This document shows, one piece after another, positions 13,801 through 18,422 of a stretch of 64,000 nucleotides of DNA. The position numbers and the translations under genes were made by a program. The stretch lies in the sequence record MK327947.1; one strand, given 5' to 3'. Each line of letters opens with the position of its first letter. The stretch's first letter is position 1. This DNA is from Escherichia phage vB_EcoM_G5211. Below the pieces are notes generated by a model that did no database searches, had not been told where the DNA came from, and saw only the letters and a program-made list of their open reading frames with translations.

Positions 13801-13809
13801 TAAGCGAAA

Positions 13810-13833
13810 GGCGGGGATTATCCCCGCCTTTTT
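13810..13833. terminator. bidirectional terminator between gene 54 and lipoprotein gene
   Basis: GGCGGGGATTATCCCCGCC + TTTTT. Confidence 0.6.
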
Positions 13834-14317
13834 ATTTTGCTAAATCATTGCAATATTTTAGTGCCTTAGTTTGAAATTCTGCGCTGTTAAGTTCTTCATA
13901 ACGGTCATAATCACCGTTTAATGCTGCTTTTCTTGCTTCTTGCTCTATCTGCATGTCAGACATGATAATACAGCGATCCCGCGCTTTCATCTTCTCAAGT
14001 TGTATAGACTCTTCTTTCTGCTTGCGCAATTCTTCTTGACGCTTCTTTTCTTCTTGTGCTTTCTCTTCCCGCGCTTCTTTGATTGCATCCTTGAACATCT
14101 GCGTTTGTGGTGCTAAACCAACTTTAACTCGATCTACGTCTCGACGTTCCATTTTAGAAATAAAGCATGATTCGATCTGATCATCACTTGCATATGCTGC
14201 TTTACATTCACGAAGCAAGAAAACCGGATCTGATTTAGCATTCATCATAGCTTCCATGTTGGCACAACCAGTAAGCATGAATGCAGCCGCAAGACCAATC
14301 AGTTTAATCATTTTCAT
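13832..14317 (-). CDS. predicted lipoprotein with coiled-coil region
   Basis: Signal peptide with lipobox LTGC; charged K/E-rich middle. Confidence 0.6.
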   Translation of the reverse strand: MKMIKLIGLAAAFMLTGCANMEAMMNAKSDPVFLLRECKAAYASDDQIESCFISKMERRDVDRVKVGLAPQTQMFKDAIKEAREEKAQEEKKRQEELRKQKEESIQLEKMKARDRCIIMSDMQIEQEARKAALNGDYDRYEELNSAEFQTKALKYCNDLAK

Positions 14318-15138
14318 TTAGTCACCTCACCGAAAATTGTAAATTGTCTACGATTCTCATCGCCGAAAGATTCTACTACGTCGTTTACCTTGACGCAAGT
14401 CCCGCGCGGTAAAATTACTTCACATTCGCAAGGGTTCCATGCAATGGACCCAACAACAAAACCTTTATGATCTTTTACATCAATCACCCATGATACATTA
14501 CAAGAATGTTGCATCTTTCCGGTCATGGATTCATATCGATTCTCACAATAAAGGCTAGTGCTGTTTGATAGCCAGCCTCCAAAGATGATCGGTGTCATGC
14601 TGGTCGATACAAAGTTTTTAAAGGTAAACTCCTTATCTTCAATGATACGCTCTATTGTCTGAATGTCAAGATGTTGACCGCGATAAAGAGTACCGTTTAA
14701 CTTTTCGGTTTTATCCATGACGCAATCCATCAAATCGACAATCTCTGATATCTCATCGGTCATGTCTTCTTCCCCTAAGAGAGCACCATTTACCCATTCG
14801 TATTGCTCAGACACATAATCACAGATTGCATTATATTCTGCTGGGGTTATGTTGTTATGTTTGTAATGTTTGAATACATTATCTCCAAAGTCTTCGGAGT
14901 GTACTTCATACATCACATTAATGATTTTCTTGACAAATCCATAATCTTGTGTCTCACGCTCAAGGAAGCGGATAACCTTCACATAATCATCAAAGTTAAT
15001 CTGATCGCTGATCATCTCAGTGATCATGTAACCATTAATACCCTCAATGTCATATGTTTCGATGTAATTATCCATACGTTCCATCATTGATTCGCGTGAT
15101 TCTTCTGAAAGACGAAAATCCTGTAATTTCTTGAACAT
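14314..15138 (-). CDS. ADP-ribosyltransferase, short Alt-like paralog (catalytic domain only)
   Basis: LYRG...FVSTS...CECEVILPRG (R, S-T-S, E-x-E motifs) aligning with the C-terminal part of the adjacent Alt. Confidence 0.75.
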   Translation of the reverse strand: MFKKLQDFRLSEESRESMMERMDNYIETYDIEGINGYMITEMISDQINFDDYVKVIRFLERETQDYGFVKKIINVMYEVHSEDFGDNVFKHYKHNNITPAEYNAICDYVSEQYEWVNGALLGEEDMTDEISEIVDLMDCVMDKTEKLNGTLYRGQHLDIQTIERIIEDKEFTFKNFVSTSMTPIIFGGWLSNSTSLYCENRYESMTGKMQHSCNVSWVIDVKDHKGFVVGSIAWNPCECEVILPRGTCVKVNDVVESFGDENRRQFTIFGEVTK

Positions 15139-15162
15139 TTTAAACCTCCCATATAACAGAAA

Positions 15163-15190
15163 ACGGGGCTAGTATAAAACTAGTCCCCGT
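15163..15190 (-). terminator. hairpin between alt and Alt-like gene
   Basis: ACGGGGACTAGTTTTATACTAGCCCCGT palindrome, U-rich tail on minus strand. Confidence 0.4.
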
Positions 15191-15216
15191 TTGAGTCAAC
15201 CATTATTTCTTAAAAA

Positions 15217-17268
15217 TTACATTTTAAATTTATCTGGCATTGCGTCTACAGATACCAGATCAGCGATAAGCTGACGTAGAGTTGCCTTATCTGCTTTCTT
15301 ACGTTCGGTTTTAGCTTCGCTAATGAAGCTGGAGAAAGACAGGTCAGAAGCAGGTTTAATAACACCTTCACGGATGAATGCATCACCGTCCGCGATCATC
15401 TCGCCAGATTCTTGTAATGCTGCCAGTTCATTTTTGTTCATAATATGTGCCTCAATGTAATAAGTTTCTTGTGAATCCGTCGATGCCGTAGCACGAGTTA
15501 CCGTATCAAAGGATAACACAACACCGCGAGGAAGTAAAATCTCGCATTCTTTGTAAGCAAATGCTTTGTTACCTACTGGCAATACAGGGATGTTTTCCGC
15601 GCCAGCAATGGAGAAAGCAACATTAGCGCCACCTTCACCGCGAGAGCCAGCCATAGAATCAACACCAGCAACGGCACTAGCCACGTTTGCATTCCAGCCG
15701 CCAAAAATGTTAGGTGCAAGGGAAGTGCTCACATAGTTTTTAAAGTAAAACGCTTTTTGCTTACGTGCAGTTTCCCACATTTGCGACCGGAAGTCCATAC
15801 CACGATACAGAATAGTACCCGGATCAAGTTTAACGCCATAGTTGGAGAAGGCATTATCCAGTGCATCGCACATCTTGACCAATTCTTCTGGATCTGCGAT
15901 GCCTTCAAACTCTTCCAGCTTACGGTCGGTTAGGAAGTTGTTCATATTGATGTATGCTGCATCGGCATATTCGCTCAACACAAAACCTTCCGCGCCCGGC
16001 AGATCAAGATCAATATCTGCCATCATTTCACCCATGTTGCTAGCAATTGCTTCAAACATACCGGAAGCAACATTACGTAGGGCATCGGTTTTAATCTGGG
16101 TGATGTGACTACGCAGCATTTCAGCTTTTACATCTGCTGGCATAGACTGGTCTACTCGATCCATTGCCAGGGCGGTGATCTTGTTTTCGAATACTTCCTC
16201 GCTCATGATTTCTTTTAAGCGTTTGATTGATGCTGCGATAACTTCCGCAGACAATGGATCATATTGATCCTGAACTTTTACCAGTTCGCTTACTGCGTAT
16301 TTTGCATCGGCTTCGCTTTCAAAAATAGTACGCATGAAACCATAGCGAGTGATAATATCACTTGTCCAGTCATTCAGAGAACGGGCGGTTGAACGTTCTA
16401 AGGCTTGACGATCAATCAGAGTATTAAACTGTTTCTTAGGTTCGGCTTCGGTGATATCTTCTTCCGGTTTAAGATTAATTTTTTCTGGATGATTCACATA
16501 GTCGCTGTTATAGGTCGCTTGAGTTTTCAGCATTTCTTCTTTAGTCAAACGAGATTTAGCCGCTACGCGTTGTTCTGCTTCCGCGTTTCGTTCTTCTTCT
16601 GACACAAGACTAGCCGCATATGCCTCATCTTTAGTCAGAGATTCACCAGTAGCCTTAGATACCCAGCGATCACCTAAATCACTTTCTACTTTAGTGAACA
16701 AGGATTCATCAAGTTTAATCCCTTTAATCTTATCAATCGCCATCCCGCGACGCTTGACAACAACTAAAGCGATCTTTTTGCTGGTCATTACTTCCTGCTG
16801 GAATACTTCAAACTTCGGTGTACGACGCACCAAACGCTCTATAACGCGCTTAACCAGTTCGGTCTTACCTTTCATGCGGGATACGTTAAAACGGAACATA
16901 ACAGCGTCTAATTGCGCTTTACGGGCTGTTTCCATAACCACATCAAAAGCACTTGACATAACTGCAATCGGGTTATCGCCTAGACCATTTTTAAGCTGTA
17001 CAATACGACCGCTTTTGTTCATTTCGCACAGTACAACATGTGCGGTCTTGTCACCCATACGAATGATTTTAGGTGTTTTGTTGGTGAAGTTACAAAGACG
17101 GACAATCACATCTTTATCGCGTGTCTGTACTGCAAAAAGCTGTTTAGGATTCTGCTTAGGCTTTAAGCACTGTACCGGAGCAATACTGCCAAAGTTTTCT
17201 TCCTCTTCCGTCAACAGCCATTTCTCGAAAGATTCAATCATTAGATCGTCGATTTCTAAGTTAAACAT
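15217..17268 (-). CDS. alt: Alt ADP-ribosyltransferase
   Basis: 683 aa; C-terminal ART motifs YRG, STS, ECEILLPRG; position after gene 54. Confidence 0.8.
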   Translation of the reverse strand: MFNLEIDDLMIESFEKWLLTEEEENFGSIAPVQCLKPKQNPKQLFAVQTRDKDVIVRLCNFTNKTPKIIRMGDKTAHVVLCEMNKSGRIVQLKNGLGDNPIAVMSSAFDVVMETARKAQLDAVMFRFNVSRMKGKTELVKRVIERLVRRTPKFEVFQQEVMTSKKIALVVVKRRGMAIDKIKGIKLDESLFTKVESDLGDRWVSKATGESLTKDEAYAASLVSEEERNAEAEQRVAAKSRLTKEEMLKTQATYNSDYVNHPEKINLKPEEDITEAEPKKQFNTLIDRQALERSTARSLNDWTSDIITRYGFMRTIFESEADAKYAVSELVKVQDQYDPLSAEVIAASIKRLKEIMSEEVFENKITALAMDRVDQSMPADVKAEMLRSHITQIKTDALRNVASGMFEAIASNMGEMMADIDLDLPGAEGFVLSEYADAAYINMNNFLTDRKLEEFEGIADPEELVKMCDALDNAFSNYGVKLDPGTILYRGMDFRSQMWETARKQKAFYFKNYVSTSLAPNIFGGWNANVASAVAGVDSMAGSRGEGGANVAFSIAGAENIPVLPVGNKAFAYKECEILLPRGVVLSFDTVTRATASTDSQETYYIEAHIMNKNELAALQESGEMIADGDAFIREGVIKPASDLSFSSFISEAKTERKKADKATLRQLIADLVSVDAMPDKFKM

Positions 17269-17334
17269 TTTATATCCTCTAGTTGATAACCTATAAACCT
17301 ATATTTATGAAAAGGGGGCTTAACGCCCCATTTA

Positions 17335-17550: not shown

Positions 17551-17615
17551 ATACTCCTTAGTAGTTCGTTTCGGTATGGGTGTATTATGATATACACCCT
17601 CTGTTATGTCAACAA
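17551..17615 (-). promoter_or_regulatory. early promoter/leader cassette
   Basis: TTGACA, ~17-nt spacer, CATAAT, conserved leader, GGAG SD. Confidence 0.55.
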
Positions 17616-17798: not shown

Positions 17799-17868
17799 GT
17801 TTGATTCTCCTTTCGTTTCGGTATGTGTGCATTATAGGGGATCTCCGACCCCCCTGTCAACAACTTTT
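17799..17868 (-). promoter_or_regulatory. early promoter/leader cassette with GC palindrome in spacer
   Basis: TTGACA 17855-17860, TATAAT 17831-17836, palindrome GGGGGGTCGGAGATCCCC between them, GGAGAATC SD. Confidence 0.55.
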
Positions 17869-18422
17869 TAGTTATTTTTTAATTGCTCATCTTGCAATAG
17901 GGCAATCACATGCTGGCGATGTTCTTCCGATTGAGGAACACCGAAAAAGTTTGTTTTGTAGAAATACTCTAATCGGTCTTCTCGTGTGCTCTCTTCCATC
18001 ATGATCGCGGGTAGTCCGAGATTTCGGAAACGTCGCTTTTCTGCTGGCGTAAAATCACTGTAATACAACATAGAATCATCATTACCAGCAATGCTAAACT
18101 CATCATTCATGAAGGAGAATATTGCGTTTAAACGCTGTTTACCGTCCACGATTTCGATCTCATAGCGAGAGCCATCATCAATCTTAGCCATTGCGATAGC
18201 ACCAACCGGAAAATCATTAATCAGGTTTTCGATAAACATACGTTTGTTTTCGGTGTCCCATACCAAAGGACGCTGATAATCTGGGTTCATGTTGATATAG
18301 CCATCTTCTAACCATGCATCATAAACAGAGATGACAAAGTTTTTAGTATTGGTATAGTAACGGCGTTTAGGCGTTAAACGGTTCATGTTATAGTCTCCTG
18401 AATGGATCATCACGTAAATCAA
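17868..18422 (-). CDS. DUF262 (ParB-like / GmrS N-terminal-like) domain protein
   Basis: PDYQRPLVWD ... FPVGAIAMA ... IVDGKQRLNAI matches the DUF262 signature (DGQQR-type motif). Confidence 0.6.
   Translation of the reverse strand: MIYVMIHSGDYNMNRLTPKRRYYTNTKNFVISVYDAWLEDGYINMNPDYQRPLVWDTENKRMFIENLINDFPVGAIAMAKIDDGSRYEIEIVDGKQRLNAIFSFMNDEFSIAGNDDSMLYYSDFTPAEKRRFRNLGLPAIMMEESTREDRLEYFYKTNFFGVPQSEEHRQHVIALLQDEQLKNN

Follow-up and report, generated by a model that had tools for sequence, protein, structure and literature searches.

A second ADP-ribosyltransferase gene and a lipoprotein gene follow alt in the genome of the Krischvirus phage vB_EcoM_G5211

We examined the alt region of Escherichia phage vB_EcoM_G5211 within a 64,000-nucleotide stretch of its genome (sequence record MK327947.1; hereafter the window). 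Three genes follow one another on the minus strand: alt, which encodes a full-length Alt ADP-ribosyltransferase (ART); a gene for a smaller, second ART (here the short ART; RB49ORF183c in phage RB49); and a lipoprotein gene (RB49ORF182c). A 3.7-kb query over the locus matched 58 phage records at 95–99.4% nucleotide identity, all of them RB49-like Krischvirus coliphages (RB49, phi1, JSE, GEC-3S, and GoldenSnicker among them), and the window is a Krischvirus genome. The short ART and lipoprotein genes had already been annotated and discussed between 2003 and 2010, and their description in an initial annotation of the window, made from the sequence, is accurate but not new. The RB49 GenBank entry (2003) describes RB49ORF183c as 'similar to C-terminal part of T4 Alt protein' and alt as 'packaged in head'. 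RB49ORF183c, 44RRORF188c, and T4 alt.-1/alt.-2 were later listed as paralogous duplications of alt (Nolan et al. 2006, PMC1524935), and more recent Krischvirus records carry the annotations 'ADP-ribosyltransferase (x2)' and 'putative lipoprotein'.

The existence of these two genes is confirmed, and they are probably functional. Each of the two ARTs has a match to Pfam PF03496 (expect values, E, of 2e-9 and 4e-16). In PHROGs, Alt is assigned to phrog_802 ('Alt-like') and the short ART, over its full length, to phrog_15144 ('ADP-ribosyltransferase', E 3e-198). The short ART aligns to positions 330–602 of the 674 positions of the Alt profile; over the core, its identity to the Alt of the window is 37%. 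In a MAFFT alignment of both window ARTs with T4 Alt, ModA, ModB, and other Alts, the R, S-T-S, and E-x-E motifs that the initial annotation had read as intact in both tandem paralogs all align with those of the three T4 enzymes, and neither protein has lost the catalytic Arg or Glu. The catalytic Arg (LYRG, strand β1; R153 in the short ART, R489 in Alt) occupies a column that is invariant in alignments of 10 and of 22 sequences. The S-T-S motif (S178-T179-S180 and S514-T515-S516, respectively) is invariant as well, and the E-x-E of the ADP-ribosylating turn-turn (ARTT) loop corresponds to E238-C-E240 in the short ART and E574-C-E576 in Alt.

The AlphaFold model of the short ART has a predicted local distance difference test score (pLDDT) of 86 and a predicted template-modeling score of 0.84; the first 10 residues have a pLDDT of 67. 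Foldseek searches with this model returned Vis, C3bot, CDTa, iota, and Tre1 (E 1e-11 to 1e-8, probability 1.0). By its sequence and its modeled fold, the short ART has the features of the R-S-E clade of mono-ADP-ribosyltransferases (PF03496, Alt/VIP2/C3-like), and it is predicted to be arginine-specific because its ARTT motif has the E-x-E form associated with that specificity in the family. A sequence search of solved structures with the short ART gave marginal matches only (Tre1, E 0.07), and NCBIfam and PADLOC searches gave nothing useful for it. Residues 61–254 also match, weakly (E 3e-5), the C-terminal part of phrog_595 ('head maturation protease'), which implies that an Alt-type ART domain is fused to the prohead protease in some phages.

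The short ART had been said to align only to the C-terminal catalytic domain of Alt; the match to the core stands, with the correction that the C-terminal ~85 residues of Alt are missing too. T4 Alt is cut by gp21 at ITE-6 and LTE-619, with removal of 63 C-terminal residues, as determined by mass spectrometry in a study that left the role of the two propeptides open (Ali et al. 2017, PMC5694885). L-Q-E-620 of the window Alt aligns with T4 LTE-619 and is followed by exactly 63 residues, and (L/I)xE-S occupies that column in all of the aligned Alts. The short ART ends ~12 residues before this column and so has no C-terminal propeptide. The Alt propeptide (residues 621–683) contains a conserved YDGDxxxE(T)GE block, and its extreme C-terminus reads (M/L)Px(K/R)F plus 1–3 residues in every Alt examined; these motifs suggest a specific role, for example in core tethering or activity control.

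At the other end, the short ART lacks the N-terminal ~330 residues of Alt. PF26846 (Tevenvirinae_ADPRT, N-terminal) and PF03496 are both on record for a protein identical to the window Alt (P0009); PF26846 is recorded for Alts only, and the short ARTs carry PF03496 alone. The initial annotation took the missing part to be the one associated with packaging. The domain is indeed missing, but the literature does not assign packaging to it. Near their N-termini the short ART has L-S-E-12 and the window Alt M-I-E-12, a motif that is short, close to chance frequency, and weakly conserved. Taken on these sequence features, packaging of the short ART into the virion appears unlikely.

An intact short ART open reading frame (ORF) with at least 97% identity is present in all 58 cultured Krischvirus genomes. 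The ratio of non-synonymous to synonymous substitution rates (dN/dS) is 0.035–0.064 against SSG23, JK32, and W115, with 15 synonymous and 0 non-synonymous changes relative to RB49 and 31 synonymous and 10 non-synonymous relative to SSG23. Metagenomes contributed five further short ART lineages, with 83, 63, 48, 45, and 44% identity to that of the window. The proteins of all six lineages are 272–288 residues long and keep the R, S-T-S, and E-x-E motifs. In a neighbor-joining tree of Alts and short ARTs (built without the Mods, which saturated the distances when included), the short ARTs form a clade with 100% support. This clade joins the Krischvirus-type Alts (76% bootstrap) and not the Tevenvirinae Alt or Alt2 groups, a placement that suggests that the Krischvirus short ART arose by an independent duplication of alt.

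The spacer between alt and the short ART gene is 78 nt long (AATAATGGTTGACTCAAACGGGGACTAGTTTTATACTAGCCCCGTTTTCT...GGGAGG...ATG). Within it, a −35 hexamer (TTGACT) and a −10 hexamer (TATACT), each one base off consensus, are separated by 17 nt and preceded by an AT-rich region. The −10 hexamer lies in the loop of a stem-loop with G4...C4 stem ends, which is followed by TTTTCT and then by a Shine-Dalgarno (SD) sequence, GGGAGG. The hairpin has a folding energy of −18.9 kcal/mol (z = −6.1 relative to shuffled sequences), with UUUUCU following it in the transcript; the hairpins of this element range from −17.8 to −19.3 kcal/mol (z about −6). Across five lineages whose proteins are 44–63% identical, the −35, the −10, the 17-nt spacing, the G4/C4 stem ends, and the U-run are all invariant, and inner stem pairs change in a compensatory manner (C-G to A-T or T-A; T-A to C-G). 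The stable fold, the U-run, and the conservation across lineages bear out the earlier report of a terminator-like hairpin between the two ART genes.

By its architecture, the spacer hairpin is a PeSL, a class of composite promoter and terminator found in RB49 and phi1 at ~51 per genome (PMC2839356, PMC4122927). Aligned with further early promoters of RB49, it falls in register, and in several of these a G-run/C-run hairpin surrounds the −10; the supplement of Nolan 2006 lists an early promoter in the alt/ORF183c spacer (Pe:112388, score 9.3). In published tests of representative PeSLs, one intact clone (206/205) gave high lacZ expression, the 193/192 clones had all gained point mutations in the −35/−10, and termination at the 211/210 stem-loop equaled that of a strong terminator (PMC2839356). 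The pattern of the present element occurs once in the window and once in IMG/VR (one contig). The conserved σ70 early promoter within the hairpin fits the earlier proposal that the short ART is an intracellular enzyme.

Similar arrangements occur nearby. Two further early promoters on the minus strand of the window (Table 1) and those at RB49 2846, 33349, and 115047 have G-run/C-run inverted repeats around the −10, and a PeSL-like example, GGGTGTAT-ATCATAAT-ACACCC, lies 5' of the 70-residue ORF that precedes alt. In the metagenomic Krischvirus L030, a hydrophobic ORF of 49 residues (2390–2539) separates alt from the PeSL, which remains with the short ART gene.

Upstream of alt, a hairpin (GGGGCGTTAAGCCCC) followed by CTTTTC insulates the gene from an early ORF. 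TransTerm also predicts a terminator at this position in RB49 ('alt<--RB49ORF185c'; Nolan 2006 supplement), and it is kept in the divergent lineage L008. Between this hairpin and alt lies CATAAATA (late-promoter consensus TATAAATA), at the position of which L008 has AATAAATA. Only 8 ATAAATA cores of the window, this site included, are located at most 120 nt 5' of an ORF of at least 60 residues, and the distance of the site from the gene resembles that seen at tail and fiber genes; the site is absent from the conservative list of 17 RB49 late promoters of Nolan. We infer that CATAAATA is the late promoter of alt. A late promoter listed inside ORF183c (Pl:112065), the highest-scoring RB49 late promoter in the Nolan supplement (15.9), was rejected. 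It reads CATTACAAACATA and does not contain TATAAATA, which the nine other listed sites that we checked do contain; an error in the listed coordinates could account for this.

The lipoprotein begins MKMIKLIGLAAAFMLTGC and has a K-rich n-region, a hydrophobic core, the lipobox L15-T16-G17-C18, which fits the pattern [LVI][ASTVI][GAS]C, and Ala at +2. The signal peptide and the lipobox, which agrees with the LTGC originally proposed, are invariant in 14 sequences, and the protein is annotated as a lipoprotein by W115 and UniRef; the Nolan 2006 supplement gives a signal peptide at residues 1–20 of ORF182c. Because of the Ala at +2, the E. coli sorting rule would direct the protein to the outer membrane. 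The mature protein has four invariant Cys residues (C38, C51, C116, and C156), and its model (pLDDT 87) is all-α with a 62-residue helix; fold searches against the PDB returned only non-specific helical bundles (E >0.4). The family is confined to Krischvirus-like phages, and a pattern-limited scan of bacterial genomes found no member. The T4 protein Alt.-3 was considered as a homolog and shows no similarity.

In the window the stop codon of the short ART gene overlaps the lipoprotein start (ATGA), and the two overlap or abut in every lineage for which the downstream region is available. A second lipoprotein allele, with ~30% identity in the mature part, occupies the same slot elsewhere (L013 4001–4513; L025 3822–4334). 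Its signal peptide is identical to that of the window in four metagenomic variants and matches over about the first 11 residues only in E26 and JK32, and the ART genes beside it are 97.8–100% identical to those of the window. This pattern resembles the outcome of flanking recombination that exchanged one cassette for another.

The order alt, short ART, lipoprotein beside gene 54 is also found, with tight stop/start junctions, in L008, L017, and L018, and in L015 alt and then the short ART gene are present, after which the contig ends. The plus-strand neighbors of the block encode gp48 and gp54 (the baseplate tail-tube cap and initiator), and small early ORFs also lie near it on the minus strand. 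Synonymous divergence (dS) between the window and RB49 (L004) is uneven across 14314–17268 (0.10 in the short ART gene, 0.03 in alt, and 0.01 in the lipoprotein gene), which indicates mosaic recombination inside the block. Beyond alt, the window encodes a 184-residue protein that consists of the GmrSD N-terminal (DUF262) domain only, without the nuclease half (Pfam E 6e-20). It matches PADLOC NsnA and PD-T4-2_A, is kept in the relatives L028 and L032, and could be a decoy or an anti-defense factor.

Table 1. Positions of genes and sequence elements of the alt locus in the window
Feature	Position	Strand	Remarks
alt	15217..17268	-	683 aa; full-length Alt ADP-ribosyltransferase (ORF list, PF03496, PHROGs)
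Alt residues 621–683	15217..15417	-	predicted C-terminal propeptide
Short ART gene (RB49ORF183c)	14314..15138	-	274 aa, 32 kDa, isoelectric point 4.6; N-terminal helical region and C3-like R-S-ExE catalytic domain
Short ART codon R153	14680..14682	-	catalytic Arg
Short ART S-T-S codons	14599..14607	-	
Short ART E-x-E codons	14419..14427	-	
Lipoprotein gene (RB49ORF182c)	13832..14317	-	161 aa, lipobox LTGC
Terminator hairpin GGGGCGTTAAGCCCC + CTTTTC	17315..17329	-	between alt and upstream early ORF
Late-promoter-like motif CATAAATA	17302..17309	-	33 nt 5' of alt ATG; consensus TATAAATA
PeSL-type composite element	15158..15199	-	promoter hexamers, stem-loop, then TTTTCT
PeSL −35, TTGACT	15194..15199	-	
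PeSL −10, TATACT	15171..15176	-	in hairpin loop
PeSL G4...C4 stem-loop	15161..15192	-	
SD, GGGAGG	15145..15150	-	
Bidirectional terminator	13806..13832	.	common to convergent gene 54; TransTerm '54-><-RB49ORF182c' (Nolan 2006 supplement)
Listed late promoter Pl:112065	14849..14891	-	RB49 112023–112065
Early promoter	17584..17612	-	G-run/C-run inverted repeat around −10
Early promoter	17831..17860	-	G-run/C-run inverted repeat around −10
DUF262-only protein gene	17868..18422	-	184 aa

To place the short ART among the ARTs of these phages, RB49 1–100 kb and the window were scanned with a hidden Markov model (HMM) of the catalytic domain, which detected Alt, the short ART, and Mod only. RB49 has a single mod gene, beside srd, and its product is nearer ModB (phmmer E 1.3e-9) than ModA (6e-4). 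The Krischvirus complement in the scanned sequence is therefore Alt, the short ART, and one ModB-like Mod, without a ModA, which makes three ARTs as in T4. That the short ART substitutes functionally for ModA is speculation.

We consider it fairly likely that alt is expressed late and its product packaged, and that the short ART gene forms an early operon with the translationally coupled gene of the outer-membrane lipoprotein, the short ART acting in the cytoplasm. The locus would then hold two transcription units that deploy one enzyme scaffold at two times of infection. Behind its terminator and the late-type CATAAATA, alt would encode a full-length Alt that is built into the prohead core. 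By homology to T4, this Alt would be trimmed by gp21, for which M-I-E-12 and L-Q-E-620 are the probable sites; injected along with the DNA, it would then ADP-ribosylate host RNA polymerase and other proteins. The G4/C4 stem-loop and U-run of the PeSL would stop alt transcripts, and its σ70 promoter (TTGACT-17-TATACT) would start a new early transcript 3' of the stem. The hairpin would spare this transcript because the start, ~7 nt after the −10, falls at or just 3' of the stem end. The short ART would most likely be made de novo early in infection and act on host proteins in the cytoplasm, with a Mod-like function. By translational coupling, the same transcript would yield a helical periplasmic lipoprotein, anchored in the outer membrane and with two probable disulfides, whose most likely effect is a change in the infected cell's envelope; that it serves in exclusion or protection is a guess in which we have low confidence.

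Several points weigh against an early, cytoplasmic short ART. The early-promoter HMM of Nolan scores Pe:112388 low (9.3, compared with 23–39 at strong sites), late read-through of the PeSL hairpin is possible, and the searchable literature yielded no Krischvirus expression, virion-proteome, transcriptome, or enzymatic data. T4 internal proteins are made early as well as late, so that an early promoter alone is compatible with packaging. In 4 of the 5 other short ART lineages, (L/I)xE occurs at positions 8–13 and, by eye, appears to align with L-S-E-12; this N-terminal motif could be a gp21 site or part of a leader resembling a capsid-targeting sequence (CTS). As for a replacement of ModA, it is gene counting only that argues for it, and RB49 ~161.2–164.0 kb entered that count through its annotation, the HMM scan having covered the sequence named above.

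These points bear on an alternative that we regard as unlikely, in which the short ART, like Alt, is packaged in the capsid and injected, and the N-terminal domain and C-terminal propeptide of Alt are dispensable for packaging. In its favor, counting the window, 5 of the 6 short ART lineages have (L/I)xE at residues 8–13 (aligned to each other by eye), the window Alt and short ART both begin MF, and the model is less confident over the first 10 residues. A CTS of ~10 residues is enough for packaging in T4 (PMC9026906), ~44% of phage ARTs lie in packaging-suggestive contexts (PMC9503650), and the short ART gene sits between alt and baseplate genes. However, (L/I)xE-type motifs are near chance frequency in the short ART (~3.7 expected per protein, 5 seen), and M1 is the sole invariant residue of its poorly conserved leader. 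Neither a T4-type CTS (MKTYQEFIAE) nor a leader like that of the short ART was found in the other M-start ORFs of RB49 1–100 kb and the window. The gene has a conserved σ70 promoter and no TATAAATA, and a terminator separates it from alt; its product lacks the C-terminal propeptide present in every Alt. A leftover of an alt duplication that is in decay and has no function of its own, like T4 alt.-1/alt.-2, is far less probable. T4 does carry, according to a GenBank note, degraded N-terminal pieces of another alt copy in the corresponding place, and a T4-like metagenomic contig carries a second alt split into ORFs of 273 and 415 residues. The strong purifying selection on the short ART, without a single amino acid change relative to RB49, nonetheless argues that it is not a decaying copy, and the selection data effectively refute this reading. 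The ORF, moreover, is intact in every cultured Krischvirus genome, its length and motifs are kept down to 44% identity, its fold is confidently predicted, and it has its own conserved promoter and SD; the degraded duplicate envisaged as a counter-case in the initial annotation is thus not what the locus contains.

For the lipoprotein, a role as an Llp/Cor-type superinfection-exclusion or receptor-masking factor, and as the main adaptive function of the cassette, seems doubtful to us. The protein is predicted to be expressed early and anchored in the outer membrane, and the two divergent alleles beside near-identical ARTs form an arms-race pattern. Against this, it resembles Cor in the signal peptide only (E 0.007), it has no structural relative in the PDB, and the allele shows no correlation with the type of the gp38 adhesin, a comparison made as a test of receptor masking: Whisky combines allele B with an RB49-type gp38 and GEC-3S allele A with the other gp38 type. 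Evolution within allele A is conservative (dN/dS ~0.06). The suggestion of superinfection exclusion made at the outset accordingly finds no specific support. Returning to the early operon, we entertain tentatively an extension of it in which a duplicated Alt core was re-tooled behind the PeSL into an early cytoplasmic ART that replaces ModA or has a new host target (a defense or translation factor) and is functionally paired with the lipoprotein. The linkage of the short ART and lipoprotein genes is strict in all four lineages with the downstream region available (the window type, L008, L017, and L018); if the extension is true, this linkage would reflect a pairing of cytoplasmic and envelope takeover functions.

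Phage ARTs currently attract attention for their roles in taking over the host and in anti-defense and for RNAylation by ModB, and RB49ORF183c is a strongly conserved, uncharacterized third ART in a well-studied coliphage group. If the early cytoplasmic assignment is correct, the short ART would be a convenient compact Alt-type enzyme for target mapping, and the locus an example of a PeSL cassette that shifts the timing of gene expression. The finding leaves current concepts unchanged.

The elements of the locus can be compared with known systems. Like the Cor/Llp exclusion lipoproteins, the window lipoprotein is phage-encoded and has a lipobox; the Cor match (phrog_1119) covers residues 1–45 only, and the all-α model has no structural match. 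The RB49/phi1 PeSL cassettes (Arbiol 2010; Comeau 2014) share with the element described here the AT-rich upstream region, the −35/−10 at N17, the GN-loop-CN stem over the −10, and the SD and ATG. The present cassette differs in lying at the edge of the virion module and not in a hyperplastic region. The C3-like, Vis, binary-toxin, and Tre1 ARTs of the R-S-E type have the fold of the short ART (TM-score normalized to target 0.6–0.7) at 15–21% sequence identity; the short ART adds helical residues 1–95, which are homologous to central Alt. T4 ModA and ModB are likewise small R-S-ExE ARTs and resemble the short ART in its predicted early, cytoplasmic expression, but the short ART is only 15–21% identical to them over the domain and is not a member of their family (BLASTP to RB49 Mod, E 0.17).

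T4 Alt is the ortholog of the window Alt, with the same length, the same place by genes 54 and 48, the R-S-ExE motifs, and PF26846 plus PF03496. The short ART is 29–36% identical to Alt catalytic domains and differs from T4 Alt in lacking Alt residues 1–~330 and the 63-residue propeptide and in having its own σ70 promoter. Tandem paralogs between alt and gene 54, as in Krischvirus, also occur as T2 'alt2', JS98 altb, the Moonvirus second alt, T4 alt.-1/alt.-2, and 44RR ORF187c/188c. In the metagenomic contig mentioned above (L010, 5183–7248), the 273-residue ORF is N-terminal, the 415-residue ORF is catalytic, and the two overlap by 4 nt; this split alt may stand midway between the full-length copy seen in T2 and the forms seen in T4 or Krischvirus, or it may be a frameshift. 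The second copy is thus labile, being full-length, split, an N-terminal remnant, or a catalytic core depending on the phage. In T2, JS98, and Moonvirus it is full-length (685–708 aa), keeps both propeptide sites, and follows alt after 0–3 nt (T2 and JS98, with no PeSL-like element between the copies) or 35 nt (Moonvirus). T4 retains only N-terminal remnants of it, whereas Krischvirus has the catalytic core only, placed behind a PeSL.

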